DNA from: a virus
Lineage: Duplodnaviria; Heunggongvirae; Uroviricota; Caudoviricetes
IMG/VR virus record: IMGVR_UViG_3300046787_000353
Location: 1 to 64,000 of that record
DNA: 64,000 nt
Strand: one strand, 5' to 3'
The notes below the pieces were generated by a model, which saw only the letters and a program-made list of their open reading frames with translations, did not search any database and had not been told where the DNA came from. The position numbers and the translations under genes were made by a program. Shown one piece after another: positions 30,300-52,304 of the stretch. Every line of letters starts with the position of its first letter. Position 1 is the first letter of the stretch.

Positions 30300-31100
30300 T
30301 TATATAAAATCAACTATATCATTTTTTTCAAAATCATAGTCGAATGTTAATGGATAATTATTTACTTCATAACTCAAATCGCAATTACACCCATTAAACG
30401 CATATCCCCATCCAGTGTTTCTATATCCGTATGCTTCGTGGATGTGACCTGAAAAATGTAATTTAGGATTAACTTCATTCAATCTAAGATATAATTGCTC
30501 ACATCCCACATTCAATCCACCATATTGAGTTCTATCACAATAACTATGTATCGGTCCATGTGTAATAACAATATCAGTATCTAATGGGATTCCATTCCAT
30601 ACTTCGTTTATATCATACCCTCTATCTTTGTTGAATGCCCATCCATATCCAAATGATGGTGTGATTGGCGAACCCCATATTTTTAACCCATCAATTGTTA
30701 TATCTGAATTTTCTAAATAATAAACATTATCATTTAAGCCATTCGTTAATAACTCAATCAACCAATCCGGCTTACCTTCCGCTGGAATATGTTCATTACC
30801 TTCGGTATCCCATACAGAACGTTTACCATCGAAGTAATCAATTTTATTCTGCATTAACTTTTCAGAATCAAAAGACATATCGTGGTTACCTGCAATAAAG
30901 ATTTTGTGAGTGTAGTTATCGATTCCATTAAACCATTTAATAAATGATTCAACTTCTCTTTTTCTACCTAAAGAAGATATATCGCCACTATGGATAAGAA
31001 TATCACCACCTGCCAACTTACCACTAAGTTGATTGTGTTTGTTGTGGGTGTCCGATATGTGGGTGATTCTCTTCATCATAATTGTAACTTTCATGTCCAA
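30300..31100 (-). CDS. Calcineurin-like metallophosphoesterase
   Basis: Motifs ISDTH, GDISSLG, GNHD, ITHGP and SGHIHEAYG. Confidence 0.75.
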   Translation of the reverse strand: MDMKVTIMMKRITHISDTHNKHNQLSGKLAGGDILIHSGDISSLGRKREVESFIKWFNGIDNYTHKIFIAGNHDMSFDSEKLMQNKIDYFDGKRSVWDTEGNEHIPAEGKPDWLIELLTNGLNDNVYYLENSDITIDGLKIWGSPITPSFGYGWAFNKDRGYDINEVWNGIPLDTDIVITHGPIHSYCDRTQYGGLNVGCEQLYLRLNEVNPKLHFSGHIHEAYGYRNTGWGYAFNGCNCDLSYEVNNYPLTFDYDFEKNDIVDFI

Positions 31101-37563: not shown

Positions 37564-38706
37564 TTAGTGAGAATCGCCTACATTGTGTTTCTCTCCGTAG
37601 ATTAAATAATCAGGGTTGATTACTTTAGCTACTTTTTGTCTTTCACCTGTATAGTATTTGATTACAATTCCTTCCTCTGGCACTTTAGAACCTTTGATGA
37701 AGTTGTTGAATACAAAACTATCTTGTACATCTTGCGACCATTTGCCAAAATACAATATTGGAACGTATGGTAAATCTAAAAATTCAAATGTGCTATTAGC
37801 ATTCATTGGTGTCATATATTTACCATCAACCGTAATATCGAATCCAGCAAAATCAATAGTATCTAATCCATACTCATAGTTCTTTTGAACCCCTTTACCA
37901 TAGATTTCACCATAGATTACAAACCCACTACCAATTTCTTCTGGACTATATGTAGCCCTTACGATTTGCCATAACTTACGTTTGATATCTAAATCATTCG
38001 CAATGTTATACCAAACGTTTGTATCATAGAAACCTTGTGAGTCTGAACCTTTCTCCACATTGTGAGAACCAACCACATATTCGTAGTCAATCCAACCGTC
38101 GGCCAATCCAAAGAATTTCTTAACTTTATCAAAGAATGATAATTTGGTTTTTTTACAAATACCATATCTTGCATTAGTTCCGTGAATCTTACGAGTGATT
38201 TCCACAAAGTCGTCTTCGGTAAACATTCCAGCTACGTTTTTCAAATTCGGAAATTTGTAGTAGATATGGAAGTTTGGATTATCTTTGTATTTAATCTTTC
38301 TACCACTTGCCAATTGAATTTGTTTAACAGGTGGTTCAAATTTACTAACACCAAAGATATCCATACAATCGCTACCTTCTTTCAAATCCCAATCTCCCAT
38401 AGTAGTTCTACCATGTAAGTATTTATGTGGAATGATTAAACATTCTGAATATACACCTCTTAACTTTACAGTCCTAACTCTATTACCTTTACGAAGATAG
38501 CTTGTTACACCCATCTCTTCCGATAAGCCTTCCGGAATTACAGCATCGGTGGTTGCGATGATTACATTATCACCTACGATTTGTTCACCTTTTTTGCTAA
38601 TACAATTCCACCCACCTGCTACGATTAACTCAATGTTATCTGCTCCTGGGATTTCTCTTACTTCGTTTACTTTTGCAACGAAACAAACTGAATTTTGATT
38701 TTCCAT
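37564..38706 (-). CDS. ATP-dependent RNA ligase, Rnl2 (T4 RnlB)-like, with N-terminal tRNA-binding-like OB region
   Basis: Nucleotidyltransferase motif I RKIHGTN equals T4 Rnl2 EKIHGTN. Residues 10-50 (AKVNEVREIPGADNIELIVAGG...EQIVGDNV) resemble the Myf/EMAP tRNA-binding domain pattern. Confidence 0.75.
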   Translation of the reverse strand: MENQNSVCFVAKVNEVREIPGADNIELIVAGGWNCISKKGEQIVGDNVIIATTDAVIPEGLSEEMGVTSYLRKGNRVRTVKLRGVYSECLIIPHKYLHGRTTMGDWDLKEGSDCMDIFGVSKFEPPVKQIQLASGRKIKYKDNPNFHIYYKFPNLKNVAGMFTEDDFVEITRKIHGTNARYGICKKTKLSFFDKVKKFFGLADGWIDYEYVVGSHNVEKGSDSQGFYDTNVWYNIANDLDIKRKLWQIVRATYSPEEIGSGFVIYGEIYGKGVQKNYEYGLDTIDFAGFDITVDGKYMTPMNANSTFEFLDLPYVPILYFGKWSQDVQDSFVFNNFIKGSKVPEEGIVIKYYTGERQKVAKVINPDYLIYGEKHNVGDSH

Positions 38707-38717
38707 TTCTTATATCT

Positions 38718-38948
38718 TTATTTTAAGAACCATTCAAATGATTGCTTGATTATTGATAAATTAACTTCTTGACAGATTACCCATTTTATCCAAGCCAATG
38801 GCCAAAATAAGAAATCTATAAATGCCCAAAAACCACTTTGGTTAATGGTATATCCGATTATAGCTGTTGGTAATGCGAATATAATGTTTGGTAATGATAC
38901 CGGTCTGATTGAAATTGTTCTTTTTGCCATCTTATTTAATTTTTTCAA
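38718..38948 (-). CDS. small membrane protein (76 aa)
   Basis: Two hydrophobic segments. Confidence 0.4.
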   Translation of the reverse strand: MKKLNKMAKRTISIRPVSLPNIIFALPTAIIGYTINQSGFWAFIDFLFWPLAWIKWVICQEVNLSIIKQSFEWFLK

Positions 38949-39657
38949 ATGTAGGTTTTAACCACAATATGTTGTTTTTGAATATATAATCTCTTAATTT
39001 TGGATTCTGATTAAGTATCTCTAATGTTTTCAATGTATCATGTTTGAAACACTTTAATAACTCTTCTCTGATTCTCTCAATTGATACCACTCCCATCTTA
39101 CCTTCGTAGTCAAAGTTGTATATGAAGTAATCTAAGTATGATAATCTAAATCCCTTCGTGATAGAGAACCTAATTGCTCTTATAATACGAAGTGGGTCAT
39201 CTTCAAATGTTACTTTGGGTGCCAATGGTGTTATCAATATCATACGTTCTAAATCCATTTGACCATTAAACAAATCAATTAGATTACCATCTTCATCTTC
39301 CGCCATAGCGTTGACTGTAAAATCTCTACGAATCAAATCATCTTCCAATGTTCCCAATTCTAAGATTGGTCTACGAGTCCCTTCCACATACCCAACTTCC
39401 TTTCTTGCCATTACAAAATCGGCAACCATTCCAGCGTATTTATGTTCTTTGGGAAATTTAGCACGGATAGTAAAACAATCAGGTGTAGAAAGGAATATTT
39501 CAAATTCATTATGTTCCAACCATTTGGTCATAATATCAAATCCTTCCTCCACTGTCCTATCTAAGTTGTCCAAAACAAATGTGAAGTCAATATCATTTGT
39601 ATCAACCCCTAACAATCTATCTCTAACACAACCTCCTACTTTAAATATCTTTGGCAT
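38932..39657 (-). CDS. cca: tRNA nucleotidyltransferase (CCA-adding enzyme), minimal head+neck form
   Basis: GGCVRDRLLG...DIDF and LEDDLIRRDFTVNAMA..DGNLIDLFNG...DL match class-II CCA enzyme motifs. Confidence 0.85.
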   Translation of the reverse strand: MPKIFKVGGCVRDRLLGVDTNDIDFTFVLDNLDRTVEEGFDIMTKWLEHNEFEIFLSTPDCFTIRAKFPKEHKYAGMVADFVMARKEVGYVEGTRRPILELGTLEDDLIRRDFTVNAMAEDEDGNLIDLFNGQMDLERMILITPLAPKVTFEDDPLRIIRAIRFSITKGFRLSYLDYFIYNFDYEGKMGVVSIERIREELLKCFKHDTLKTLEILNQNPKLRDYIFKNNILWLKPTFEKIK

Positions 39658-40311: not shown

Positions 40312-40974
40312 TTACTTTTTATAGTTTTCTACAATTGTATGATGGTCTTTATCTAAGAATCCATCGATAGGTTGTTTATCCAATATCTTCAATACTTCAC
40401 TCATACTGATTGGAAATAATCCGTTACCATCAACTCCAACATCCATCACTTTACCTCTACCAACTCTTCTGCTAGGCGGTAAGTGAACGTGTCCATGTAA
40501 GTGAGGAACTCCTTTACCCAACCCATCCCAACTTGCAATTGGAAAGTGCATTAGAACAAAATGTGCTCCAACATGCTTACCACTTCCATCAGGCCATTTG
40601 ATACTCAAATCTAAGTATTGGTTAACCGAACTGAATAAATCAGCTACACCATCTTTGTTTTTGGCAATGTGATGGTCGTGGTTACCTAATATCAAATGTA
40701 TGTTTTGGCAAACAATTCTGTTTCTGAAATCAGCGATTGAATCAAATCCACCAAAACTCCAATCACCTAAGTGAATTAGGATATCATCATATCCAACAAG
40801 TGAGTTGATATTGTTAACCAATACGGAGTTCATTTCACCCAATGTATCGAAATCTCTGAAATGGTTATCACCACTTCTATCCCATTGAGTTGTTCCTTTA
40901 CAAATGTTAGCATGGTTGTAGTGGGTATCACTTGTGAACCATACTTTTTGTCCTTTGTTTAATAATATTTTCAT
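40312..40974 (-). CDS. Calcineurin-like metallophosphoesterase (candidate RNA-end healing phosphatase)
   Basis: Motifs GDWSFGG, GNHDHH and HLHGHVH. Confidence 0.75.
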   Translation of the reverse strand: MKILLNKGQKVWFTSDTHYNHANICKGTTQWDRSGDNHFRDFDTLGEMNSVLVNNINSLVGYDDILIHLGDWSFGGFDSIADFRNRIVCQNIHLILGNHDHHIAKNKDGVADLFSSVNQYLDLSIKWPDGSGKHVGAHFVLMHFPIASWDGLGKGVPHLHGHVHLPPSRRVGRGKVMDVGVDGNGLFPISMSEVLKILDKQPIDGFLDKDHHTIVENYKK

Positions 40975-42016: not shown

Positions 42017-42113
42017 AACTCTCTTATTTTTTATTACATAGTAAATATACGAAATTCAAATGAGATTGCCAAATAAAACACAAGTTATTTTTGAAAAAAT
42101 GATAGTAATATTG

Positions 42114-42184
42114 TTACCCGAGCAGGATTCGAACCTACCCTAACTGCACCAAAAACAGTTGTGCTACCGCTACACCATCAGGCA
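42114..42184 (-). tRNA. tRNA-Gln (TTG)
   Basis: Acceptor TGCCTGA/TCGGGTA, D-stem GTGT/GCAC, anticodon loop TTTTGGT, T-arm GTAGG-TTCGAAT-CCTGC. Confidence 0.7.
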
Positions 42185-42318
42185 AAATTCTCAAGCATTC
42201 TACTTCCCGCAGCACGAAATTGTATCTTACTTAGCCCATCGTTGGCGGTATGGGTACTTGAGTTATTGTAAATGAACAAAACCTATTGTTCTTTTGGCTT
42301 TTTACATAAGCCCATTTG

Positions 42319-42390
42319 AGCAGGTATTCGGACTCGAACCGAAATCTCCGACTTGGAAGGCCGGAACACTAACCATTGTGCTATACCTGC
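42319..42390 (-). tRNA. tRNA-Gly (TCC)
   Basis: Acceptor GCAGGTA/TACCTGC, anticodon loop CTTCCAA, T-loop TTCGAGT. Confidence 0.8.
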
Positions 42391-42451
42391 ATGCATCCCG
42401 TTACTCGTGCACGAGCGGTGGCACTACGGGACCGATGTTATTCCACTATCG

Positions 42452-42523
42452 AGCGAGAGATGGGGTTCGAACCCACGACCCTCACCTTGGCAAGGTGATG
42501 CTCTACCGCTGAGCTACTCTCGC
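42452..42523 (-). tRNA. tRNA-Gly (GCC)
   Basis: Acceptor GCGAGAG/CTCTCGC, anticodon loop TTGCCAA. Confidence 0.8.
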
Positions 42524-42659
42524 AAATTGTGTAGGATGCGCCCACCTACACCACACTTTTAGTAGTATGTTGCCACGCTACCACGTTTCGAGTTGTTTAA
42601 CGACCTACTCTGAATGTCAGCCGCCAGGGTGTGCTTCACGTTAAACCCGGAGACGCTTA

Positions 42660-42736
42660 TGGTGGACCAGATAGGGCTCGAACCTATGACCTACTGATTA
42701 TGAGTCAGGCGCTCTAACCAACTGAGCTACAAGTCC
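42660..42736 (-). tRNA. tRNA-Met (CAT), CCA encoded
   Basis: Anticodon loop CTCATAA. 3' end is ...CTGGTCC-A-CCA. Confidence 0.75.
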
Positions 42737-42875
42737 AATTAAGAGAAGCTTGGGTCTTTCGGGGTTACTGATTGAGTGCAATAAGTGAGCTCTTCCTACT
42801 ATTAACCCTTTTTCGGAAATCAATACACTCTACTTCTCAATTACAGCTATACTACTTCTCTTTTGTGGAGCTACT

Positions 42876-42948
42876 CGGATTCGAACCGAGGATTCCTGCG
42901 TGCAAGGCAAGTGTGTTAGCCAACTATACCATAGCCCCAAATTTGGAT
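42876..42948 (-). tRNA. tRNA-Ala (TGC)
   Basis: Acceptor GGGGCTA/TAGCTCC, anticodon loop CTTGCAC. Confidence 0.75.
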
Positions 42949-42996
42949 AGATATGGTTCTATCCGGACCAGAACATTCTCCCTAGGGAGATGCCAG

Positions 42997-43081
42997 TATC
43001 GGAGGTGGGACTCGAACCCACACGACCCCTTCGGGTCAATGGATTTTAAGTCCATCGGGTCTACCATTCCCCCACTCCGAT
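42997..43081 (-). tRNA. tRNA-Leu (TAA), type II
   Basis: Acceptor ATCGGAG/CTCCGAT, anticodon loop CTTAAAA, long variable arm. Confidence 0.75.
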
Positions 43082-43212
43082 AGTTCACTTTACATTCCAA
43101 AGTGTAAGTAGGTTTAGTTGTGGACTTTCCTTCCAGTAGAACTCTCATTTTATTGATTATCGGGTCTGTTATTCTACAATTTTAACGTATTGACCATACA
43201 CGTTGAGTATCG

Positions 43213-43290
43213 CTGTCAGGGCCGGACTCGAACCGGATAAGCAACCACTTTATTGGATTTGGGACCATCCCGCATTACGCCCACCTAACA
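43213..43290 (-). tRNA. tRNA-like gene, anticodon undetermined (good acceptor and T-arm; D and anticodon arms irregular); possible pseudo-tRNA
   Basis: Acceptor TGTTAGG/CCTGACA, T-arm CCGG-TTCGAGT-CCGG. Confidence 0.35.
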
Positions 43291-43292
43291 AT

Positions 43293-43535
43293 TTAATATC
43301 CTATTTCATCTTTAATTTTCCATTGGGTATCAATTGGAATTCGTTCAATTCTTTCAACTGGAACAAACCCATCAAACCCACTTTCTTTAACATCTTCAAA
43401 ATGTTCAATGGTATCCAAATAGAAACCGAATGAATATCTGATGTATTGGAATTTATCACCATCCCAATATGCCACATGGTTGTTTCTACTAAACCCATTA
43501 TACCAGCCTTCTTTCATTTCATTTTTTGGTATCAT
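43293..43535 (-). CDS. hypothetical protein (80 aa) embedded in the tRNA island
   Basis: ORF between the tRNA-like gene and tRNA-Arg with no tRNA overlap. Confidence 0.4.
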   Translation of the reverse strand: MIPKNEMKEGWYNGFSRNNHVAYWDGDKFQYIRYSFGFYLDTIEHFEDVKESGFDGFVPVERIERIPIDTQWKIKDEIGY

Positions 43536-43551
43536 ACTCTTTTATTTTTTG

Positions 43552-43625
43552 TGAACCCATCAGGAATCGAACCTGAAACCTACACATTAGAAGTGTGTTG
43601 CTCTATCCAATTGAGCTATGGGTCC
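43552..43625 (-). tRNA. tRNA-Arg (TCT)
   Basis: Anticodon arm ACACA-CTTCTAA-TGTGT, T-loop TTCGATT. Confidence 0.8.
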
Positions 43626-43630
43626 AGTTG

Positions 43631-43703
43631 CGGGACCGACGGGAGTTGAACCCGCTCCATACTCCGTGACAGGGAGATATCTTAACCGTTTGACCTCGGC
43701 CCC
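43631..43703 (-). tRNA. tRNA-Asp (GTC)
   Basis: Acceptor GGGGCCG/CGGTCCC, anticodon loop CTGTCAC, T-loop TTCAACT. Confidence 0.75.
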
Positions 43704-44081
43704 AAATTTGATAGGTGACCATCCTATCGTGAAATGATATACCATTTCTTTTCTTTATAGAATCCGAAGATACTGCAGGAACATTTTTTAGCACCCTCTT
43801 TCTTATCCCGCTTATAGATTTTACGCCATAAGAATTGCGGTAAGAGTAGGGTCAAGCTGAGAACTCATTTGTGTTGTCTTGTCAGTATCAAAACTCCTGC
43901 ACCAAGCTTGCCAAATCGTATTCCTTTCTCAAGGGAACAACACATCTACCATTACTGATAGTATCTTTATGTAAATTATTGCCAGTTCCTCAAATATCTA
44001 AAGATACTGTTCTATTGTTTCTGCGTTATCAATTTCAAACGTTTGGAATAATTTACAAAGGTATTCAATGTTTAACCTATT

Positions 44082-44154
44082 GAGCCTTCTGTCGGATTCG
44101 AACCAACGACCTGCTGATTACAAATCAGCGGCTCTACCAGCTGAGCTAAGAAGG
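44082..44154 (-). tRNA. tRNA-Thr (TGT)
   Basis: Acceptor GCCTTCT/AGAAGGC, anticodon loop TTTGTAA. Confidence 0.8.
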
Positions 44155-44210
44155 CATTTAATAATCAAAGTGTATTCTTCCCTTTCTACTACCGAACCAC
44201 CCTCACCAGG

Positions 44211-44235
44211 TAGTTCAGGTGGGAGTCGAACCCAC
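44211..44235 (-). other. tRNA 3' fragment (T-arm GTGGG-TTCGACT-CCCAC plus 3' acceptor strand), a remnant lacking a 5' body
   Basis: T-arm-like motif only 18 nt from the 3' end of tRNA-Glu, with no room for D and anticodon arms. Confidence 0.4.
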
Positions 44236-44253
44236 ATTCTCTTTAATTATTTG

Positions 44254-44325
44254 TAGCCCGTAGGGGAGTCGAACCCCTCTTTCCAGAATGAAAACCTGAC
44301 GACCTAACCGATAGTCGAACGGGCC
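44254..44325 (-). tRNA. tRNA-Glu (TTC)
   Basis: Acceptor GGCCCGT/ACGGGCT, anticodon loop TTTTCAT, T-arm AGGGG-TTCGACT-CCCCT. Confidence 0.75.
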
Positions 44326-44382
44326 TACTTAATTACTATCACTATTTCAAAGAACTATCGGAGTATTACCGATTTTGTTTTA

Positions 44383-44420
44383 CAAATATACGAAATATAT
44401 TTTACATTTCCTAATATTTT
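44383..44420 (-). promoter_or_regulatory. promoter, class 2 (TTAGGAAATGTAAAATATATTTCG-TATATTTG); a 49-nt exact repeat of 48393..48441
   Basis: Exact -7 TAnnTTTG, with TTAG in place of the -33 TTTG. Lies upstream of 44422..44886. Confidence 0.5.
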
Positions 44421-44421
44421 T

Positions 44422-44886
44422 TTACATTTTTACTAAATGGTCAGCGCAATATGTTGCCATTGTTCCAAATGTTTTATATCTCACTTTATATCCCATTCCT
44501 TCAACCATACCAACCGCTTGTCTGAACACTTCGTTTGATTTATACTTAGGGTCTGGGTTCAAATCCACATCAATCCAAGTTGCTTTCTGAATACCTGCTT
44601 TTTGTAAATCTTCAGCGGTTTCAACTGCGAACCAAACTTCATTTAACAATCTTACAGAACGAGTCCACTCTCTTTGAGCTGCCCATTTCCTATAAAGAAC
44701 GTGTGCTCCTCTTCCTGGTGTGTATAGTGCTACTACAATCGCATATATAGTTTTATCTTTACTATTTTGCGAATCACACCCTACCAATATTTCAATGTTC
44801 GGGTTTGATACAATATAATCTTTGATATATGTATCCAATTCGACCTGAGTCCCATCTTGTAATTTCCTATAAACCATAATCATCAA
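44422..44886 (-). CDS. hypothetical protein (154 aa) within the tRNA island
   Basis: Clean ORF flanked by tRNAs with its own promoter motif. Confidence 0.55.
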   Translation of the reverse strand: MMIMVYRKLQDGTQVELDTYIKDYIVSNPNIEILVGCDSQNSKDKTIYAIVVALYTPGRGAHVLYRKWAAQREWTRSVRLLNEVWFAVETAEDLQKAGIQKATWIDVDLNPDPKYKSNEVFRQAVGMVEGMGYKVRYKTFGTMATYCADHLVKM

Positions 44887-44892
44887 ATTTTG

Positions 44893-44965
44893 TACTCATA
44901 GAAGGATTCGAACCTTCAAAAACTGGGTTCTAAAGCCAGTGCGGTTACCAGTTACGCCATACGAG
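44893..44965 (-). tRNA. tRNA with anticodon TAG (nominally Leu-CUA) but type I (short 5-nt variable arm); atypical
   Basis: Acceptor GCTCGTA/TATGAGT, D-loop AACTGGTAA, anticodon loop TTTAGAA, T-arm GAAGG-TTCGAAT-CCTTC. Confidence 0.55.
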
Positions 44966-44981
44966 CAATTAATACTATCTG

Positions 44982-45062
44982 CGGAGGGCAGAGTAATCGA
45001 AACTCGACCTTTTACAATCATCGGTTTAGCAAACCGACTACAACACCCGTTGCTTACCCTCC
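44982..45062 (-). tRNA. tRNA-Ser (GCT), type II
   Basis: Acceptor GGAGGGT/GCCCTCC, anticodon arm TCGGT-TTGCTAA-ACCGA, 14-nt variable arm. Confidence 0.75.
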
Positions 45063-45069
45063 TTTTTTG

Positions 45070-45144
45070 GGTGAAAAATGGGCTTCGAACCCACAACCTT
45101 CCGAATCACAATCGGATGCTCTAACCAGTTGAGCTATAATCACC
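45070..45144 (-). tRNA. tRNA-His (GTG) with G-1:C73
   Basis: Anticodon arm TCCGA-TTGTGAT-TCGGA, D-arm GCTC-AACTGGTTA-GAGC, an extra 5' G pairing with discriminator C. Two U-U mismatches in the acceptor stem. Confidence 0.65.
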
Positions 45145-45212
45145 ATATTTTGTATAATATATTATCCATTTATCCCTAAATACCAGGTTTTTGTATAGTA
45201 TATTATACATCG

Positions 45213-45282
45213 TTGCATGTATGAGGTTCGAACTCATTTGGCCATCCTTATGAGAGATAACTCTTTTCCACTAAGCCATGCA
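45213..45282 (-). tRNA. tRNA-like gene, anticodon CAT (Met/Ile2-like) with weak D and anticodon stems; possibly degenerate
   Basis: Acceptor TGCATGG/ACATGCA, T-arm ATGAG-TTCGAAC-CTCAT, anticodon loop CTCATAA. Confidence 0.4.
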
Positions 45283-45349
45283 ATTTGTGGAATCGAACCA
45301 CTTTCCCAACTCTACGTCGGGCGATATATCCAATATCCTTCACCGGTTG

Positions 45350-45420
45350 AGTTAAGTGTTGGATTCGAACCAACGTATAAGGGTTTGCAGTCCTTCGCCT
45401 AACCACTCGGCCAACCTAAC
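45350..45420 (-). tRNA. tRNA-Cys (GCA)
   Basis: Acceptor GTTAGGT/ACTTAAC, anticodon loop CTGCAAA, T-arm GTTGG-TTCGAAT-CCAAC. Confidence 0.7.
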
Positions 45421-45488
45421 ATTTAGTCTATTGTTATCTGAATATTGGTAGTATTACTACTATTATTGGATAATAATTAAACTTATTG

Positions 45489-45560
45489 TATCTCCGGAGA
45501 GAATCGAACTCCCATTTACCGGTTCGTAGCCGATTGTTCTATCCGTTAAACTACGGAGAT
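45489..45560 (-). tRNA. tRNA-Arg (ACG)
   Basis: Perfect acceptor ATCTCCG/CGGAGAT, anticodon loop CTACGAA. Confidence 0.8.
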
Positions 45561-45563
45561 ATC

Positions 45564-45830
45564 CTATCTATACTTTCGTATCATTTCAAACACCTTGCCA
45601 ATATCAGTTAATTTCATAATTTGGTCATTTCTGATTGGTAAGAATGCGATGGTGAATCCGTGGTTACCTTGAAAGAAATCTTCTCTCTTTATCCTATTCC
45701 CATTTACTTTTTCAAGGTATATCCAAGGATAGTTTCCAGCTAATTCCACTTCAATACCAATTTTTCTCAATCTCGGAACTAACCGATTTATTACATTATC
45801 TTCCATTGTGTCTTTCTGTTGTGTTTCCAC
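45564..45830 (-). CDS. hypothetical protein (88 aa)
   Basis: Minus-strand ORF abutting the 5' end of tRNA-Arg(ACG). Confidence 0.45.
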   Translation of the reverse strand: METQQKDTMEDNVINRLVPRLRKIGIEVELAGNYPWIYLEKVNGNRIKREDFFQGNHGFTIAFLPIRNDQIMKLTDIGKVFEMIRKYR

Positions 45831-45985
45831 GTTTTGTAACTTCTATACTTTGCCGAAGAATGTCCTTTTTTAAAGTTCAATCCTTCATCCCAATACGGAG
45901 GATACTCCATATCTAGCCAAATTAATCTGTAATGTTTGGAACAAGTTGCTTTGTTCAATCTCTGTCTGTTAGTTTTTACACTCAT
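45791..45985 (-). CDS. hypothetical basic protein (64 aa); possibly the N-terminal part of a frameshifted or split gene with 45564..45830
   Basis: ORF overlapping the downstream ORF by 40 nt in another frame. Confidence 0.3.
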   Translation of the reverse strand: MSVKTNRQRLNKATCSKHYRLIWLDMEYPPYWDEGLNFKKGHSSAKYRSYKTWKHNRKTQWKIM

Positions 45986-46052
45986 TTTTGCTCAATTTTA
46001 GGTTAATAAACCTAATGAGCATCGAATTTCTTTTTCATAATTTTACATTTAG

Positions 46053-46121
46053 CACGGATTGAAGTAATCGAAACCTCTCCTATGGATTTGGAGTCCATTT
46101 GGCTACCTTAGCCTAACCCGT
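46053..46121 (-). tRNA. tRNA-Trp (CCA)
   Basis: Acceptor ACGGGTT/AATCCGT, anticodon arm ATGGA-CTCCAAA-TCCAT, T-loop TTCGATT. Short D-loop. Confidence 0.6.
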
Positions 46122-46181
46122 ATTTATGTTTCATAGTTTATATGTGAGTTTAAACCTTACTACGTTACTATGAAACATCAG

Positions 46182-46255
46182 TTGGAATAGTGGGACTCGA
46201 ACCTACAACCCCCGCCGTATCAGGGCGGTGCGCTAACCAATTGCGCCATATTCCA
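46182..46255 (-). tRNA. tRNA-Ile (GAT)
   Basis: Acceptor TGGAATA/TATTCCA, anticodon arm CCGCC-CTGATAC-GGCGG. Confidence 0.8.
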
Positions 46256-46261
46256 ATATTG

Positions 46262-46337
46262 TCGGGTGAGCAGGATTCGAACCTGCGTGCTCTCGCGTCC
46301 AAGGCGAGCGAGATAAACCTGACTCCTCTACCACCCG
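46262..46337 (-). tRNA. tRNA-Pro (TGG)
   Basis: Anticodon arm CTCGC-CTTGGAC-GCGAG, T-arm GCAGG-TTCGAAT-CCTGC. Confidence 0.75.
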
Positions 46338-46391
46338 TTGGTGGATGGATTATTTTTTTAAAGTAGAATTCGCCAACCTCAAAACTACTAT

Positions 46392-46465
46392 GTGACCCCT
46401 TTGGGACTCGAACCCAAGACTCCCTCATTAAAAGTGAGGTGCTCTAACCAGCTGAGCTAAGAGGT
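46392..46465 (-). tRNA. tRNA-Lys (TTT)
   Basis: Acceptor GACCTCT/AGGGGTC, anticodon loop CTTTTAA. Confidence 0.8.
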
Positions 46466-46471
46466 CATTAT

Positions 46472-46544
46472 GTGGAGGTGAGTGGAATCGAACCACTTCC
46501 TTTCGCTCTTCAGGCGAACGCTTCTACCAAGTTAGCTTCACCTC
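46472..46544 (-). tRNA. tRNA-Phe (GAA)
   Basis: Acceptor GGAGGTG/CACCTCC, anticodon loop CTGAAGA. Confidence 0.8.
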
Positions 46545-46552
46545 CAATTTTA

Positions 46553-46629
46553 GGAGCAGAGATAGGATTCGAACCTATAACCTAATCCGGCCACATTACC
46601 GGTTGCACGTCCAATTGTGCTTCAACGCT
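46553..46629 (-). tRNA. atypical tRNA-like gene. It has a good D-arm and T-arm, but the acceptor pairs poorly and the anticodon stem CCGG/CCGG carries an 8-nt loop TAATGTGG. Identity undetermined.
   Basis: D-arm GCAC-AATTGGAC-GTGC, T-arm ATAGG-TTCGAAT-CCTAT. Confidence 0.35.
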
Positions 46630-46635
46630 CATGTT

Positions 46636-46720
46636 GTGGGAGCAGAAGGATTCGAACCTACTACCTATGCCGGTTACCAGATTTACAGTCTGGCGCCTAA
46701 CCAATTCGTGCGTTACTCCC
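46636..46720 (-). tRNA. tRNA-Tyr (GTA), type II
   Basis: Acceptor GGGAGTA/TGCTCCC, anticodon arm CCAGA-CTGTAAA-TCTGG, long variable arm. Confidence 0.8.
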
Positions 46721-46788
46721 AATTTCCAATTTTGTTATCACCATTTCCCCTCTAAACGAGCGGCGTGTTCCGGATTGGTAACCGTTAG

Positions 46789-46861
46789 TAGGAGATATAG
46801 GATTCGAACCTATGGCCCCCGCCATGTAAGGGCGGTGCTCTTACCGCTGAGCTAATCTCCT
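46789..46861 (-). tRNA. tRNA-Val (TAC)
   Basis: Acceptor AGGAGAT/ATCTCCT, anticodon arm CCGCC-CTTACAT-GGCGG. Confidence 0.8.
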
Positions 46862-46896
46862 AATTTAATTGCCAGTATTTCAATGAACTACATTCT

Positions 46897-46968
46897 GCGG
46901 GGAAAGAGAATTTCGAAATCTCGACCTACGGATTAACAGTCCGCCGCTCTGCCTCTGAGCTATATCCC
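46897..46968 (-). tRNA. tRNA-Asn (GTT)
   Basis: Acceptor GGGGATA/TTTCCCC (one mismatch), anticodon loop CTGTTAA, T-loop TTCGAAA. Confidence 0.65.
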
Positions 46969-46969
46969 C

Positions 46970-47010
46970 AAAACAAAAAACCCCTAACCGATTTGTATTC
47001 AGTTAGGGGT
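46970..47010 (-). terminator. rho-independent terminator upstream (on the minus strand) of the main tRNA array
   Basis: cccctaac/gttagggg 8-bp stem followed by UUUUUUUGUUUU on the minus strand. Confidence 0.65.
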
Positions 47011-47232
47011 TCTTAAATATTCTATTATTTAATACATTTACATCATATCTCCTGCTATAATGTCCCCTAACGTAGTATCTTGCTTGTCCAAATTACTAAA
47101 CACACAAATCCCTGCCCATGTTCTTTCTAACATCGGTAGATAATTGGCTGTATGTATTGTTAAGGTTTTCATTGCTAATATATATGTAAAAATTTATTAA
47201 TCGTTTGTTTTTGTTAAAATAATTTAATTTTT

Positions 47233-47304
47233 GAGCGAAACCAAGGAATCGAACCCCAACTTGCAACCTGGACGGCTGCCGTGCTACCACTACACTAATC
47301 TCGC
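47233..47304 (-). tRNA. tRNA, nominal anticodon TCC (Gly-like), with G instead of U at position 33 and GU-rich T-stem; atypical
   Basis: Acceptor GCGAGAT/GTTTCGC, D-arm GTGT-AGTGGTA-GCAC, anticodon arm GCAGC-CGTCCAG-GTTGC, T-loop TTCGATT. Confidence 0.5.
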
Positions 47305-48397
47305 GTTTTGAGCGGTGCGAAGGTTTTGCTCCCCCTCTACCTATCTGGAATGATAGATGTGCTACTATTACACCAATACCGCTTATATAAGGATGAGAAT
47401 ACTCCTTTTTACGAACCAACTTTAGAAAGATTATTGTTTCCTTTCATTTCCACTCCCTTTTGAGAAGTATCAATCCAATGTGGGTAATTATAGATTTACC
47501 AATCTTTGAGTTTCAAACTACTCTCTTCCTACTCCTTTTCTTCAACCCTGCCGAGCTGATTCACACTTGCGATGTTAGAAACCTTTCAAAAGAATCACAG
47601 ACCTCTTGCGGAGGTATCGTGGCAGGGAACAACTCCCTACTATGTACACACCTTTCATCTGAAACTGGCAAACACTTATGCTTTATGTTTATCTTATAGA
47701 TTTTTCATCAAATTGAAATTATAAAGTTTTGTGGTCGTAGATGGGTTCAGGTAGCGGTTTGCCTCTAGCTCCGTTATCTTTTGAACAACAGAATACTAAA
47801 CTACCCGATGTGTTATCTCTAACACCATATTTCAAGTCAACTTCACTACCCACTCTTTGGTGAGATGTAGGTAAGGATAATAACAACACCACTTGTTCTT
47901 TATCATACCTTTCGGTTTTAAGTCAACTCTTATACTGAATCACGCAATGATAAGGAGAGATTAAGTCCTTACTTCTTGCAATAATTCTATGGATTATTCT
48001 TTTTGGTGTTCCCACCTCAACTGAACTATCTACTTAGCCCAGTCATCTCCCCACTTTCTTTACAGTGTCACCCTCAATACTAAAGGGGAAATGATATTCC
48101 ACTTGCCTACTCAAGTTCATAACCTTACAGGGTTACAAACCGCAGGATAGTTAACCAACTACCCCACTTTATCCTACTTTCGTAGTTTATTTCACGACCA
48201 TAGGCGGCCGTTGTTACACTATGTAGAACGAATCTACTATGTGTAATCTTTTCAATAATTTAAAGAACGTTTTGTTTCACAAATATACGAAAACTTTTTC
48301 AAACTTCCAAATATTTTTTAAACTTTTTTTATAAATCTAACTACCCGAGTATCTTTCATCACCTATAAGGGTTTACATCATCTTTACTTTTGTTTTA

Positions 48398-48436: not shown

Positions 48437-48571
48437 TAAACTTTTTTTTGTTGAACATTTTCGGCTATGTTTACTTACACCATCTATACTTCCTACTTCT
48501 GAATCAACTTTGTAAATATACGAAAACATTTTTACATTTCCTAATATTTTTACAAATATTTTTAATCTTTG

Positions 48572-48644
48572 TTGCGGGAGAGGGATTCGAACCCCCGACC
48601 TTATGGTTATGAGCCACACGAGCTACCACTGCTCTATCCCGCTA
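48572..48644 (-). tRNA. tRNA-Met (CAT), second copy, with unpaired A1:A72
   Basis: Anticodon arm TGTGG-CTCATAA-CCATA, T-arm GGGGG-TTCGAAT-CCCTC, D-arm GAGC-AGTGGTA-GCTC. Confidence 0.7.
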
Positions 48645-48888: not shown

Positions 48889-49872
48889 TTATTTTTTTAT
48901 TGCTTTTTTTACAATATTTGTTGCAGCTTGTTTAACCGCATGGTTATCATCGTATTTAAGTGCCGATTTAACCTTAATCATCTTACCAGTATCAGGGTTT
49001 TTAACCATTTGGTCTAATACATCTTTAGGTAACATTGATTTTAATTTCATATCGTTTGATTTTGCAGGTGCTTTTGGTTCGAATTTTAATGGCTCATCTT
49101 TCACAGGATTATGCTTTAATGAAAATGGATTCCATAAACCTCTACTATCTACTTCCTTCGAAGTTGATGGTGCAACTTTAGCATCTTTCTGATGTGGATA
49201 CTTTGTTGGGTTATATGGTTCTAAATCCGATGTGTTTACATTACCATCCGCATCAGTCTTAGTTTCACCTCTTTCATCCGCCAATCTTACAATACCAACT
49301 GTATTAGTTTTTTTATTGTAAACAACATCATCTACATCATATAATGGCTCTTCTGCCTTTGGTTCGAATGTAAATACTTGCCCACCTTTTAATTTACTAT
49401 ACCCTTGTGCAATTTTACCAGGTGAGAACTTTCCAATGTTAAATGATTCTCCTGATTTTGAATCAATGAATGTAGCTTCTCCTTTTGCTTTAGTTTCTTC
49501 ATCGGCGAACAATACACTATCTTGTTGATATTTGTTCCCCAATTTCAATACATCATCCCTTGTTATGTTTGGGATGAATAGAGATTTCTCTTGAGTTGGA
49601 ACTTTCATATCATCCGGACAATCCTTATATTCAGTATCAGGTTTTCTACATTCCTGCCACATGCCATCTACGTGAACAAACCCATATCCCATACTTCTCA
49701 AGTCGGCCTCAAGTTGTTTGTTTCTTTGTTTGTTTTCAGCAGGTGTTAATTCACCTCTACTAGCAGTTACTACACCCCAATTTTTCATTTTAGGGTTGGA
49801 AACAACGTGTTGGTAAATTCTACCTAATGATGCTTCGTTTAAATCGTATCTATTTTTAACTGTAAAGTTCAT
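48889..49872 (-). CDS. hypothetical Lys-rich protein (327 aa)
   Basis: Long minus-strand ORF. Confidence 0.55.
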   Translation of the reverse strand: MNFTVKNRYDLNEASLGRIYQHVVSNPKMKNWGVVTASRGELTPAENKQRNKQLEADLRSMGYGFVHVDGMWQECRKPDTEYKDCPDDMKVPTQEKSLFIPNITRDDVLKLGNKYQQDSVLFADEETKAKGEATFIDSKSGESFNIGKFSPGKIAQGYSKLKGGQVFTFEPKAEEPLYDVDDVVYNKKTNTVGIVRLADERGETKTDADGNVNTSDLEPYNPTKYPHQKDAKVAPSTSKEVDSRGLWNPFSLKHNPVKDEPLKFEPKAPAKSNDMKLKSMLPKDVLDQMVKNPDTGKMIKVKSALKYDDNHAVKQAATNIVKKAIKK

Positions 49873-50624
49873 TATTTCTTAATTATATTTGCGTTTTTTA
49901 ATATTCTTGCATTAGTTACCCATTGTTTACCAATATTGTTTTTCAATGGTTCTCTAATAAATCCATCTACGGATTTTTGGATTTGCGATGTGATGTTATT
50001 ACCTGTATTGGAGTTATCAACGATACGGAAGTTACCACCAAATAAACTTTGGAATGCTCCTAAGTTATGTTGACACTCTTTCCATATTTCACTAACCAAT
50101 GTTTCTGGCAATACTCTATCTCTTTTTGAATTACGAAATTGAGCCACTTCCAATGAAGTATTAACAAACACCATAAAGGTATCGTATCCCAATTCCTCTG
50201 CTCTTTGCTTCTGCTTTCTGATTTTATTAACATCATCACCAGTCCCATCGATAATCATACCCAATCTACCGGCTTCGTAAAACTCTCTAGTCTTTTGTGT
50301 TACGGCTTTAGCTTTTTCTCTAACACCATTCTTATCTTTGGTAATAAAATCCCAAAGCTCAGGTTGAGTTTTTTCTATTTGAGCTAAATCTTTAGGGTTA
50401 ATTCCACTCTTCTTTAATTGAGCTTCGAATGCCGTATCCGAATTTATAGATTTTAAACCACTTGCTGAAAATGATGATATTCCCTGAATACCAAACAAAT
50501 CACCAGCTACTTTGGATTTACCACTACCAGGTCCTCCTGCTAAGAATATACATTTAAGAATACCCGGGTCATCGACACCCTCATTCAGCATACTATTACT
50601 AAGTAAGTCTTTTAACTTTATCAT
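49872..50624 (-). CDS. P-loop NTPase / nucleotide kinase-like protein (zeta-toxin/AAA_33-like fold)
   Basis: Walker A FLAGGPGSGKS. The N-terminus MIKLKDLL is shared with the next two genes. Confidence 0.5.
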   Translation of the reverse strand: MIKLKDLLSNSMLNEGVDDPGILKCIFLAGGPGSGKSKVAGDLFGIQGISSFSASGLKSINSDTAFEAQLKKSGINPKDLAQIEKTQPELWDFITKDKNGVREKAKAVTQKTREFYEAGRLGMIIDGTGDDVNKIRKQKQRAEELGYDTFMVFVNTSLEVAQFRNSKRDRVLPETLVSEIWKECQHNLGAFQSLFGGNFRIVDNSNTGNNITSQIQKSVDGFIREPLKNNIGKQWVTNARILKNANIIKK

Positions 50625-50935
50625 TATGATATTTTCTTTACGATTTCATCCATATCAACCTCATAAGCGTATCCTGCTCCTGGGTATCTTGTATCTGGAT
50701 TAAATTTAACCTGAGTCAATCTTTCCAATCTGACAATCATTAGTTGATTGAATATCTTATCCTTATCCCCACTTCCAATACCAGCTTTAATTGATTCAAT
50801 GGTATCTAATCCCTTACTATCAGGTATTAATATTACACTAGCACCTTTTGATGTTACTGTAAAGTTTATACTATCTCCTCTTTCGAATTTGATATTAGTT
50901 TTACTTTCTGCTAATAAATCTTTTAATTTTATCAT
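50624..50935 (-). CDS. hypothetical protein (103 aa) with the shared MIKLKDLL N-terminus
   Basis: Minus-strand ORF; start codon overlaps the downstream stop. Confidence 0.5.
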   Translation of the reverse strand: MIKLKDLLAESKTNIKFERGDSINFTVTSKGASVILIPDSKGLDTIESIKAGIGSGDKDKIFNQLMIVRLERLTQVKFNPDTRYPGAGYAYEVDMDEIVKKIS

Positions 50936-50936
50936 T

Positions 50937-51185
50937 TTATATTTTTTCTGAATAGACGATTTGTCCGTGATTATCTTCGATACTCATAGTAGCTCCACTA
51001 TGCTTTCTCTTAGCTGCTTCGTATGCCGCAGGGATTGCATCTTTTATCTTTACCAAATCTTGGTCTATTACTTTGTTATTTTTAATAATAACAACCGACC
51101 AAGGACCAGACAAACTGCCCTTACGAACACCAGCCATAATCTTTGACCAACTACCCTCCTTTAAAAGAGATGTCAATTTTATCAT
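50937..51185 (-). CDS. hypothetical protein (82 aa) with an MIKLTSLL N-terminus
   Basis: Minus-strand ORF. Confidence 0.45.
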   Translation of the reverse strand: MIKLTSLLKEGSWSKIMAGVRKGSLSGPWSVVIIKNNKVIDQDLVKIKDAIPAAYEAAKRKHSGATMSIEDNHGQIVYSEKI

Positions 51186-51223
51186 CGTTTTTGTTTTATT
51201 ATAAATATAAAATATTTTAAAAA

Positions 51224-51629
51224 TGGTGGAGGTGGAGGGATTCGCACCCTCGTCCAGAATACGGCCTAATAAACCTCATTCACAAGCTTATTTAGTTTTT
51301 CTTAACTAACAAAATAAATAGTTTCTAATTCCCCGTTGCTACTATTAAACTTAGATGGTTCTATTGTTAAGGATAATTACCAAAAACACTTCCTATTTCT
51401 TTTCGGATAGAAATCACACCTGGTTTCACATTCTTTTTTACCTCACGATGTGTGCGAGGAAGGATTAGGCTGCTACAGCGTAATCAGCACCTACGAAAGA
51501 CATAGCATCTTCGAAGGTCATTGTAGATAATTCTACTGCGTTTATTGTTCGATAGGTATTTAAGGATTTCCATCTAACCCTGCTTGCAATTATACTAAAT
51601 CATCGCTCCTGTCAAATCTAGTCACCCCC
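51224..51629 (-). ncRNA. ssrA: tmRNA (ssrA-like transfer-messenger RNA), about 406 nt, CCA encoded
   Basis: Minus-strand 5' end GGGGGTGACTAGATTTGACAGGAGCG aligns with E. coli GGGGCUGAUUCUGGAUUCGACGGG. An internal frame reads ...GCT GAT TAC GCT GTA GCA GCC TAA, i.e. ...ADYAVAA-stop (compare the ...ENYALAA tag). The 3' end GGACGAGGG-TGCGAAT-CCCTC-CACCTCC-A-CCA aligns with E. coli GGACGCGGG-UUCAACU-CCCGC-CAGCUCC-A-CCA. The 5' GGGGGTG pairs with the 3' CACCTCC. The region has no ORF. Confidence 0.8.
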
Positions 51630-51649
51630 ATATAGTGTATATATATGTA

Positions 51650-51934
51650 TTATTTTTCTATAATGATTACTTGTCCTTCCATCACACCCAAATTTGATTT
51701 TTCACTAAATGAATAGGTTGATGCCTTTGTAGTATCTTTTTTGGTAAGAATCCATAATGATGAACCTTCTTTCCAAGTTACATTCACTAAACGAACACCT
51801 TCTTCTAATTCAATAGTTTCAGTTCCACCCCATACTCTTGCTCTATTGTTTTCAGTACAAGATGCTAATAACGCAATTCCCAATAATCCTAATAATACTT
51901 TTTTCATAATGTTCTTTTTTATTTTATAATCCAA
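51650..51934 (-). CDS. lipoprotein (94 aa)
   Basis: Signal peptide with lipobox LLASC. Confidence 0.5.
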   Translation of the reverse strand: MDYKIKKNIMKKVLLGLLGIALLASCTENNRARVWGGTETIELEEGVRLVNVTWKEGSSLWILTKKDTTKASTYSFSEKSNLGVMEGQVIIIEK

Positions 51935-52304
51935 CAGAAGCCCACTCTAAATTAGCGAAACCACCATCTCTTGTAACCGGCACTCCGAATGCTCTATCTC
52001 TTTGTGGGTCAGTTGAAGAGTTGTTATTGATTAAGATTCTCTCTTCTCTACCAATACCCATTACCAATTGGTGGTATCTGAATCCTGCAGTTGCCATTTG
52101 TTCTTGTGTGATTATTCGTAAGTTCTCTGGTCTTGCAGTTGTTAGAACGATGTAATGACCGGCTTCATACCATTCATTCATCTTCTCTTTAACACCTGGT
52201 AAAACATTAACTTTATTACCATCTAAATCTTCGAAACGAACTTGCTCTATTAAAGTACCATCAATATCACTAAAAATCGTTTTGTATCCTTGTTCTTTTT
52301 TCAT
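51924..52304 (-). CDS. small HAD-superfamily phosphatase-like protein
   Basis: FSDIDGTL (motif I) and VLTTARP (motif II). Confidence 0.55.
   Translation of the reverse strand: MKKEQGYKTIFSDIDGTLIEQVRFEDLDGNKVNVLPGVKEKMNEWYEAGHYIVLTTARPENLRIITQEQMATAGFRYHQLVMGIGREERILINNNSSTDPQRDRAFGVPVTRDGGFANLEWASVGL

Follow-up and report, generated by a model that had tools for sequence, protein, structure and literature searches.

The 64,000-nt stretch analysed here (the window; positions 1 to 64,000 of the Caudoviricetes record IMGVR_UViG_3300046787_000353 in IMG/VR) contains a gap between two open reading frames (ORFs) at 50937..51185 and 51650..51934, and the question raised by this locus is whether the gap encodes a working transfer-messenger RNA (tmRNA, ssrA), as a first-pass annotation had proposed from the sequence. 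The gap itself was confirmed, with no ORF of at least 60 amino acids overlapping 51186..51649. The Rfam tmRNA model RF00023 matched 51629->51224 exactly, over model positions 1-374 of 374, with 80.1 bits (gathering score, 47 bits) and E = 1.9e-29; the covariance-model search that the annotation had recommended was therefore significant at precisely the coordinates it had given. Window 51224..51629 is a full-length tmRNA gene of 406 nt on the minus strand, complete, in one piece and in the standard gene order. An end-anchored tmRNA pattern matched once in the window and never in 100 shuffles. The circularly permuted order was not found: the GGGG end (51629) precedes the CCA end (51224), after which there is no GGGG start, and none of the permuted models RF04321, RF01849 and RF01850 reached threshold in the window. 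The tmRNA is very probably a functional ssrA gene of a large, lytic-type freshwater phage.

Homologs were obtained from IMG/VR by searching for the coding motif at the tag end (GAYTAYGCNGTNGCNGCNTAA), which gave at least 119 viral loci; blastn homology to the window RNA was present in 111 of these, among the matches listed. The complete one-piece genes (81 among the matches listed) gave 66 unique sequences of 365-431 nt, and family counts out of 67 refer to these 66 homologs plus the window copy. They are 74-94% identical to the window RNA, and the IMG/VR viral contigs that carry them reach 578 kb. The best-described relative, locus L180, is 94% identical to the window RNA over nt 1-404 and has an RF00023 score of 108.5 bits; all 12 relatives tested with this model scored 71-116 bits. 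The family is thus large, with at least 66 unique complete sequences, and was seen here only in uncultivated freshwater viral contigs; scans of IMG/VR can miss genes split by the edges of stored chunks (e.g. L037 = L124). The 50,697 GenBank phage records showed no likeness to the RNA beyond 39 nt of its 3' end.

The pairing of the 5' GGGGGUG with the 3' end, read by the annotation, holds in all seven acceptor pairs, and the T-arm GAGGG-UGCGAAU-CCCUC (T-stem, 5/5 pairs) and the encoded CCA were read as it had claimed. The alanine identity pair G3·U70 is present in the window and in 67/67 family members. The 7-bp acceptor stem and the 5-bp T-stem are also kept in 67/67, with compensatory variants: acceptor pair 5 covaries (A-U 36, G-C 14, C-G 1, U-A 1), as do the T-stem pairs, for example pair 2 (C-G 20, A-U 17, U-A 9, G-C 7). 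RNAalifold analysis of 53 sequences (alignment A1) predicted 38 pairs, and double compensatory changes occur in 22 of these. Pairing in this alignment reaches 95-100% in the acceptor stem, in each of the three helix 2 segments, in the hairpin at the tag end and in the T-arm, and compensatory changes were found in 11 of the 16 helix 2 pairs. The annotation had considered that the region might be protein-coding or unpaired in relatives; neither was seen, as the relatives have a conserved RNA whose acceptor and T-arm pairs are kept by compensatory changes.

The named structure, including two pseudoknots, was then scored for covariation against shuffles and slid registers. A standard pair was found in 87.6% of cells versus 76.2% in shuffles, and the covariation score was 0.353 versus 0.158, a value reached by 0/500 shuffles; slid registers gave at most 0.109. 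Pseudoknots flanking the tag frame had been suggested as a check, and both were recovered, PK1 upstream and PK2 downstream, with compensatory versions across the family. An alignment-free search placed an H-type pseudoknot (PK1) at the same place family-wide, with at least seven versions of stem 1 and at least five of stem 2. Its median score was 10, versus 3.7 for shuffles, and it beats 95% of shuffles in 37/67 members; the window's own PK1, with loops of 1, 1 and 7 nt, has p = 0.07. The 5-bp stem between the PK2 loop and its downstream strand is perfect in 57/67 members (CACAU/AUGUG 29, UCACU/AGUGA 26, CUCAU/AUGAG 1, UACAU/AUGUA 1). At nt 204-342, several alternative modules are present in A1, with helices spotted by eye and in the minimum free energy fold.

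The internal reading frame runs from GCA (RNA nt 91) to UAA (nt 163-165; plus-strand 51465..51467) and encodes AVELSTMTFEDAMSFVGADYAVAA. The tag therefore has 24 residues, or 25 including the charged alanine. The ...ADYAVAA end and stop, as well as the longer GCA-started frame that the annotation had considered possible, are both supported, since ARAGORN gives the same tag for L180 and for the window sequence with one base deleted. The resume context AAUAAAC-GCA aligns to the RF00023 consensus, and it is also like the ...AUAAAA-GCC of permuted relatives. The family tags are long and conserved, including (A/D)VELSTMTFEDAM(S/A)FVGADYAVAA, DEMSTMTFEDLMAFVGADYAVAA and DEKSTMTYNDLMAFVGMDYAVAA. In the 12 codons upstream of the six fixed by the search pattern, the extra states at codon positions 1/2/3 were 10/7/18, and the replacements are conservative. 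Stops occur in the +1 frame of 67/67 members and in the +2 frame of 48/67. The third pair of the tag-end hairpin switches between U-A (39) and A-U (14) through a coupled synonymous change, GCU GUA GCA to GCA GUA GCU. This switch, together with the codon-like variation, indicates that the tag frame is constrained both as RNA and as peptide; purifying selection has acted on the structure as well as on the tag. The first tag codon is GAC (Asp) rather than GCA in L281, L275, L237, L174 and others, in an otherwise identical context (AAUAAAC-GAC-GUA-GAA...). The tag motif DYAVAA was not found in the searchable literature or in the searched supplements of the tmRNA database paper.

Table 1. Parts of the tmRNA and neighbouring features, with positions in the window and RNA nucleotide numbers.
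Feature	Position	Strand	Remark
5' acceptor strand GGGGGUG, nt 1-7	51623..51629	-	7/7 pairs with nt 396-402
D-loop analog ACUAGAUUUGA, nt 8-18	51612..51622	-	AG at nt 11-12; GG in all 66 relatives
Helix 2, 5' strand, nt 19-48	51582..51611	-	RNAalifold and pair counts
PK1, nt 49-79	51551..51581	-	Stem 1 AGGGUU/AAUCCU; stem 2 GAUGG/CUAUC
Tag frame	51465..51539	-	Resume codon GCA 51537-51539; stop UAA 51465-51467
Helix 5-like hairpin GCUG-UAG-CAGC on the last tag codons, nt 151-161	51469..51479	-	100% paired, 53 sequences
PK2, nt 171-203	51427..51459	-	Hairpin CCUCGC/GUGAGG; loop CACAU pairs with AUGUG
PK3/PK4-equivalent variable region, nt 204-342	51288..51426	-	Modules swapped among family members (alignment A1)
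Helix 2, 3' strand, nt 343-375, including the extra C at nt 373 (window 51257)	51255..51287	-	
T-arm GAGGG-UGCGAAU-CCCUC, nt 379-395	51235..51251	-	G at tRNA position 55 (window 51245)
3' acceptor strand CACCUCC, discriminator A and encoded CCA	51224..51234	-	
tRNA-Met	48571..48643	-	ARAGORN; first of the conserved downstream RNA island
GOLLD RNA (Rfam-modelled part)	47390..47808	-	RF02032, 292 bits
tRNA array, 22 ARAGORN tRNAs and one Rfam-only tRNA at 43631-43703	42113..47304	-	
PolyA_pol-head nucleotidyltransferase, fold family of CCA-adding enzymes	38932..39657	-	Pfam PF01743, E = 2.3e-18
RNA ligase	37564..38706	-	PHROG 968, E = 2.3e-54

Several points weigh against a functional tmRNA in the window. 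ARAGORN, the other program that the annotation had recommended, calls no tmRNA in the window. The T-loop reads UGCGAAU, with G55 where U55 is near-universal, and helix 2a of the window copy contains a 1-nt bulge. The homologs were gathered via the DYAVAA-stop motif, so that the last six residues of the tag are conserved by construction. In relatives, a promoter-like motif (TTTGG[AT]AG, ~15 nt, TATATT) lies some 20-30 nt upstream of G1, and in some of them a terminator hairpin stands just after the 3' end; the motif is not evident upstream of the window copy, the hairpin is likewise not clear, and a scan for sigma-70 promoters and terminators around the window tmRNA gave nothing above shuffled expectation. 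No SmpB gene was found in the 64-kb window by tblastn with one SmpB probe sequence (best E, 0.63). Moreover, the expression and the biochemical function of this RNA are predicted from its sequence, and its compatibility with the alanyl-tRNA synthetase (AlaRS), SmpB and proteases of the host is assumed.

The ARAGORN result is a heuristic artefact, because deletion of a single inserted base brings the call back. In silico removal of one C (RNA nt 373, window 51257, GUAUU-C-UGGAC) restored the ARAGORN call with the tag AVELSTMTFEDAMSFVGADYAVAA; the homologs lack this C, which is thus a 1-nt insertion in the window copy. The odd T-loop was considered as the reason for the miss; reverting G55 and/or the D-loop A gave no call. 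ARAGORN detected 61 of the 66 unique relatives, with the same tag type. ARAGORN was the tool of phage tmRNA surveys (PMC7162821, PMC9004378), and since it misses genes of this kind, in which a bona fide tmRNA is hidden by one inserted base, surveys that rely on it would undercount phage tmRNAs.

The unusual elbow of the window copy comprises two changes. It is the only one of the 67 members with G55, the 66 relatives all having UUCGANU; and it is the only one with AG for GG in the D-loop analog (window 51618-51619). The T-arm has the stem and the 7-nt loop length of the standard type, with UGCGAAU rather than UUCRANY in the loop. When the unique parseable 5' ends across all collected loci (L001-L110, L122-L169, L170-L288) were counted, G55 occurred together with AG in 41/44 unique parsed G55 tmRNAs (viral permuted genes, Elusimicrobia and the candidate phyla radiation, CPR), the three exceptions being UAGG, and GG was found in all 57 parsed U55 family members. 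The combination of G55 and AG looks like tertiary covariation of the D-loop/T-loop contact. Because U55G comes with the G-to-A change in the D-loop analog, as in 41/44 G55 tmRNAs, the pattern speaks for a tRNA-like elbow that is being maintained rather than falling into decay. This natural double change would support a tertiary covariation rule for the tmRNA elbow.

Circularly permuted two-piece genes abound in freshwater phages, and recombination with them might have brought in both ends that form this elbow, an origin that we regard as rather doubtful. Over its 3' 39 nt and 5' 22 nt, the window gene has ~95% identity with permuted phage genes such as L060 and L068; of the 110 IMG/VR contigs that contain the exact 3' 32-mer, nearly all have permuted genes; and the differences between the window and L180 cluster at both ends in A1 (nt 1-52 and 345-390, by eye), with a nearly identical middle. 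However, only about five substitutions or indels separate the window ends from the family consensus, so point mutation is enough to explain them. Two exchanges would be needed in a one-piece gene whose ends are ~370 nt apart, the helix 2 adjoining the ends is of the family's own type, and the similarity of tRNA-like ends is weak evidence, as these are highly conserved in all tmRNAs.

The searches anchored at the 3' end (GGACGNGGGTGCGAATCCCNCCACCTCCACCA) gave three sets of genes. In IMG/VR, nearly every one of the 110 contigs had a two-piece gene in circularly permuted order (RF04321, beta and alpha types). In metagenomes, 12 one-piece genes were found, 41-48% identical to the window RNA. In bacterial genomes, the 36 matches belonged to Elusimicrobia, CPR phyla, one metagenome-assembled genome of Nitrospirales, and Rhodobacter capsulatus. 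All three sets share only the tRNA-like ends with the window RNA. Among 185,579 bacterial/archaeal species, each represented by one genome, the exact G55 3' 32-mer was counted in only 36 stretches, versus 110 viral contigs. The idea that the window gene is a re-permuted member of the two-piece type was dropped, since the similarity is confined to nt 1-30, 147-167 and 340-406, and true one-piece homologs exist.

The CCA is encoded in the window copy and in only 29/67 members overall; in the remaining members, the discriminator is followed by CAA, CTA, CTT or CAT. Most family members must therefore depend on a CCA-adding enzyme, and the enzyme of the CCA-adding type at 38932..39657 may be relevant to the non-encoded CCA.

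The same unusual features could be read as those of a decoy or inhibitor, in which the phage RNA binds SmpB, AlaRS or ribosomes and so blocks or diverts the trans-translation of the host. An RNA of mycobacteriophage DS6A, tmRNA-like but without a coding sequence, was reported to act in this way in E. coli (cited in PMC11915505). The non-canonical T-loop (G55), the bulged helix 2a, and the fact that no phage SmpB was seen in the window with the tblastn probe would fit such a role. The tag frame, however, is intact and long, with codon-level constraint across 66 homologs (among the matches listed), and conservation extends to the resume context, PK1 and the hairpin at the stop codon, none of which a pure decoy would need. 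In addition, the D-loop change that matches G55 is present, as it is in the G55 tmRNAs of bacteria, where the RNA must work. A decoy function is therefore quite improbable.

It is very improbable, too, that the window copy belongs to a functional family but has itself lately been disabled, the mutations in the T-loop and helix 2a being the first lesions. Besides being the sole member of the 67 with G55 and AG, it has the extra C in helix 2a, a lower RF00023 score than its close relative L180 (80 versus 108.5 bits), and four inserted ORFs that separate the tmRNA from the tRNA usually next to it. Nevertheless, the elbow has precisely the coupled pair of changes seen in independent G55 lineages, and no damage is visible in the acceptor stem, T-stem, PK1, PK2 or tag frame. 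L180 and the window copy hardly differ in the middle of the RNA, their differences lying in the two end clusters described above, and helix 2a still has 8 pairs with one bulged A, as read from the sequence.

That the gene is a bacterial chromosomal ssrA, or a partial ssrA copy at the attachment site of an integrating element, is scarcely credible: integration at tmRNA genes is common and ssrA fragments can occur in prophages (PMC9004378, PMC4383910), whereas the window gene is full length and not a 3' fragment, its annotated neighbours are without integrase domains and are all co-oriented small ORFs with phage auxiliary functions, the IMG/VR contigs bearing its homologs are viral and contain the same RNA island, and the middle of the RNA is unlike any sampled bacterial tmRNA.

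The phage origin of the window is very probable and well supported, because the homologs are on IMG/VR viral contigs and the recognisable neighbouring genes are phage-type auxiliary genes. At 65-94% DNA identity, many of these contigs (up to 578 kb) have the tmRNA, the tRNAs and the GOLLD region in common with the window. The long ORFs of the window are all co-oriented and mostly small, and its GC content is ~33%. The encoded proteins include NAMPT, RNA ligase and CobS/CobT-like ATPases; a protein like S-adenosylmethionine (SAM) lyase, a P-loop kinase and a nuclease; and a 2-oxoglutarate (2OG)-Fe(II) oxygenase, an SPFH protein, two metallophosphoesterases and a phosphoribosyltransferase. Genes for RNA repair or maturation surround the tRNA array (37564-39657, 30300-31100, 40312-40974 and 49872-50624, minus strand), namely those of the RNA ligase, the PolyA_pol-head nucleotidyltransferase, the two metallophosphoesterases and the P-loop kinase. 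The auxiliary-gene region is strongly mosaic, and homologs of window genes (e.g. NAMPT, ~92% amino acid identity) occur in scrambled order in L112-L121.

Directly after the tmRNA, the relatives have one tRNA, and after that GOLLD and a tRNA array; GOLLD lies 0.9-2.3 kb downstream of the tmRNA on the same strand in 11/12 relatives. The conserved order refers to the relatives L175, L180, L184, L190, L200, L204, L223, L259, L272, L276 and L283. In the window, four ORFs (48889..51185) stand between the tmRNA and tRNA-Met, and one of them, the P-loop kinase, has a homolog upstream of the tmRNA in L180. The annotation had counted about 30 tRNAs; the window has 25 (ARAGORN) or 26 (Rfam), all on the same strand. 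The presence of GOLLD beside tRNA clusters is known (PMC6582537), and no linkage between tmRNA and GOLLD was found in the literature searched. The stretch 47809-48277 (~470 nt), which lies upstream of the part of GOLLD matched by Rfam, is ~80% conserved at the DNA level in relatives and is probably the unmodelled 5' half of GOLLD. The 94-residue ORF upstream of the tmRNA (51650-51934, minus strand) has different neighbours in each relative. Synteny through this ORF would suggest relatives without a tmRNA, which is wrong: the region is mosaic, and the contig L112 = L223 has its tmRNA elsewhere, in the RNA island. Exact-protein look-ups of the ORFs 50937-51185 and 51924-52304 gave no match. The genomic context, like the identity and the conserved architecture of the RNA, is directly observed.

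The window tmRNA most likely works in trans-translation. The established tmRNA pathway consists of RNase P processing, alanylation via G3·U70, binding of SmpB, a resume codon and release at the stop. Accordingly patterned, the window RNA would be transcribed along with the co-oriented early or auxiliary genes, and RNase P would cut its 5' end, the 3' CCA being already encoded. The host AlaRS would add alanine via G3·U70, and the charged RNA, with SmpB encoded by the host or by the phage, would enter ribosomes stalled on broken or stop-less mRNAs. Translation would resume at GCA and append (A)AVELSTMTFEDAMSFVGADYAVAA, giving truncated proteins a 25-residue tail; the ribosome would be freed at UAA, and the ...YAVAA end might mark the product for ClpXP-type proteolysis. 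We infer the charging, the use of SmpB, the tagging and the benefit to the phage from this pathway. The benefit might be that ribosomes are kept available and amino acids are recycled during degradation of host mRNA or attack of host nucleases on RNA, because the phage likely destroys host mRNA and may face RNA-targeting defences of the host. The tmRNA might act jointly with the tRNA array, the RNA ligase, the kinase, the phosphoesterases and the CCA-adding-type enzyme. Phage tmRNAs have been noted before, with a role that is, to our knowledge, so far presumed.

The unusually long conserved tag suggests a specific protein partner. It is conceivable, though unlikely, that its conserved middle (…ELSTMTFEDAM(S/A)FVGA…) is a phage-specific handle, either an adaptor or protease site or a signal redirecting tagged host proteins. 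If so, the phage family would re-route the output of host ribosome rescue for its own use, and the fixed place of the tmRNA beside GOLLD and the tRNA array would be the mark of a single RNA module, co-regulated and directed at translation. In any case, the fixed neighbourhood of the tmRNA with GOLLD (a large structured RNA of unknown function) and with tRNA and RNA-repair genes provides concrete hypotheses on how large phages might maintain translation.

As judged from its sequence, the window RNA appears to have the defining features of a standard bacterial tmRNA (SsrA, RF00023). The order of its parts is the same (5' acceptor, helix 2, PK1, tag, further pseudoknots, T-arm, 3' acceptor, CCA), and it shares G3·U70, the discriminator A, the GCA resume codon after the A-rich AAUAAAC, the hydrophobic ...YAVAA end and the stop by a hairpin. 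It differs in being phage-borne, and in the T-loop UGCGAAU and the A for G in the D-loop analog. Most bacteria and the sampled permuted phage genes have tags of ~10-13 residues, whereas the window tag has 24 with a strongly conserved middle; the ~300-nt interior has no resemblance to sampled bacterial tmRNAs.

Phage tmRNAs as a kind of gene are already known, with tmRNA genes in ~2.3% of 18,146 phage genomes and two-piece forms dominating in aquatic phages (PMC9004378). Huge phages encode tmRNA and SmpB (PMC7162821), and the 2025 tmRNA database holds 79 phage sequences (PMC11915505). The annotation was right that tmRNAs have been reported for large phages (PMC7162821) and overstated their rarity, given the ~2.3% of phage genomes. 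As in the tmRNAs of sequenced phages (mycobacteriophages, huge phages, pelagimyophages and others), the window ssrA accompanies tRNA genes in a large genome, and the roles proposed for such RNAs are sustaining translation or recycling host proteins (PMC9004378, PMC7162821). Unlike the aquatic phage tmRNAs described so far, which are mostly two-piece (PMC9004378), the window gene is in one piece. New at the family level are its size, its occurrence in uncultivated phages only, the long conserved tag and the fixed place by GOLLD; the A/G55 elbow of the window copy is new too.

Compared with the permuted two-piece phage genes, the tRNA-like ends are nearly identical, including the G55 T-loop and the UAG D-loop analog, and the tag end is similar (L060, ANDDFYGDYALAA). 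Those genes differ in having the acceptor piece before the coding piece, with a 30-175-nt spacer, whereas the window gene has the standard order and no RF04321 match; they also have short ANDxxFALAA-type tags and interiors unrelated to the window. The one-piece G55 tmRNAs of Elusimicrobia and CPR share the T-arm and acceptor 32-mer, and Elusimicrobia also have GGGGGUG in common with the window gene, some of them AGAUUUGAC as well; the genes of both groups are bacterial and chromosomal, with other tags. The sampled one-piece G55 genes of metagenomes have other tags, too, and are only 41-48% identical overall to the window RNA.

Two further observations concern viral tmRNA genes outside the family. 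A second, unrelated viral contig, L037 = L124 (IMGVR_UViG_3300031576_000004 / Ga0247727_10000135; 163 kb, GC ~50%), has a G55 tmRNA gene in one piece, 391 nt long and with GGGGGUG in its acceptor, which the IMG/VR pattern scan missed at the edge of a stored chunk. In the permuted IMG/VR genes L007, L033, L054, L079, L084, L103 and L104, the segment from CCA to GGGG is ~175 nt long, has ATG at its start and resembles a short ORF (MKYKIVVKTGDKTFVKDV...), in which case the spacer that is excised would contain an ORF.

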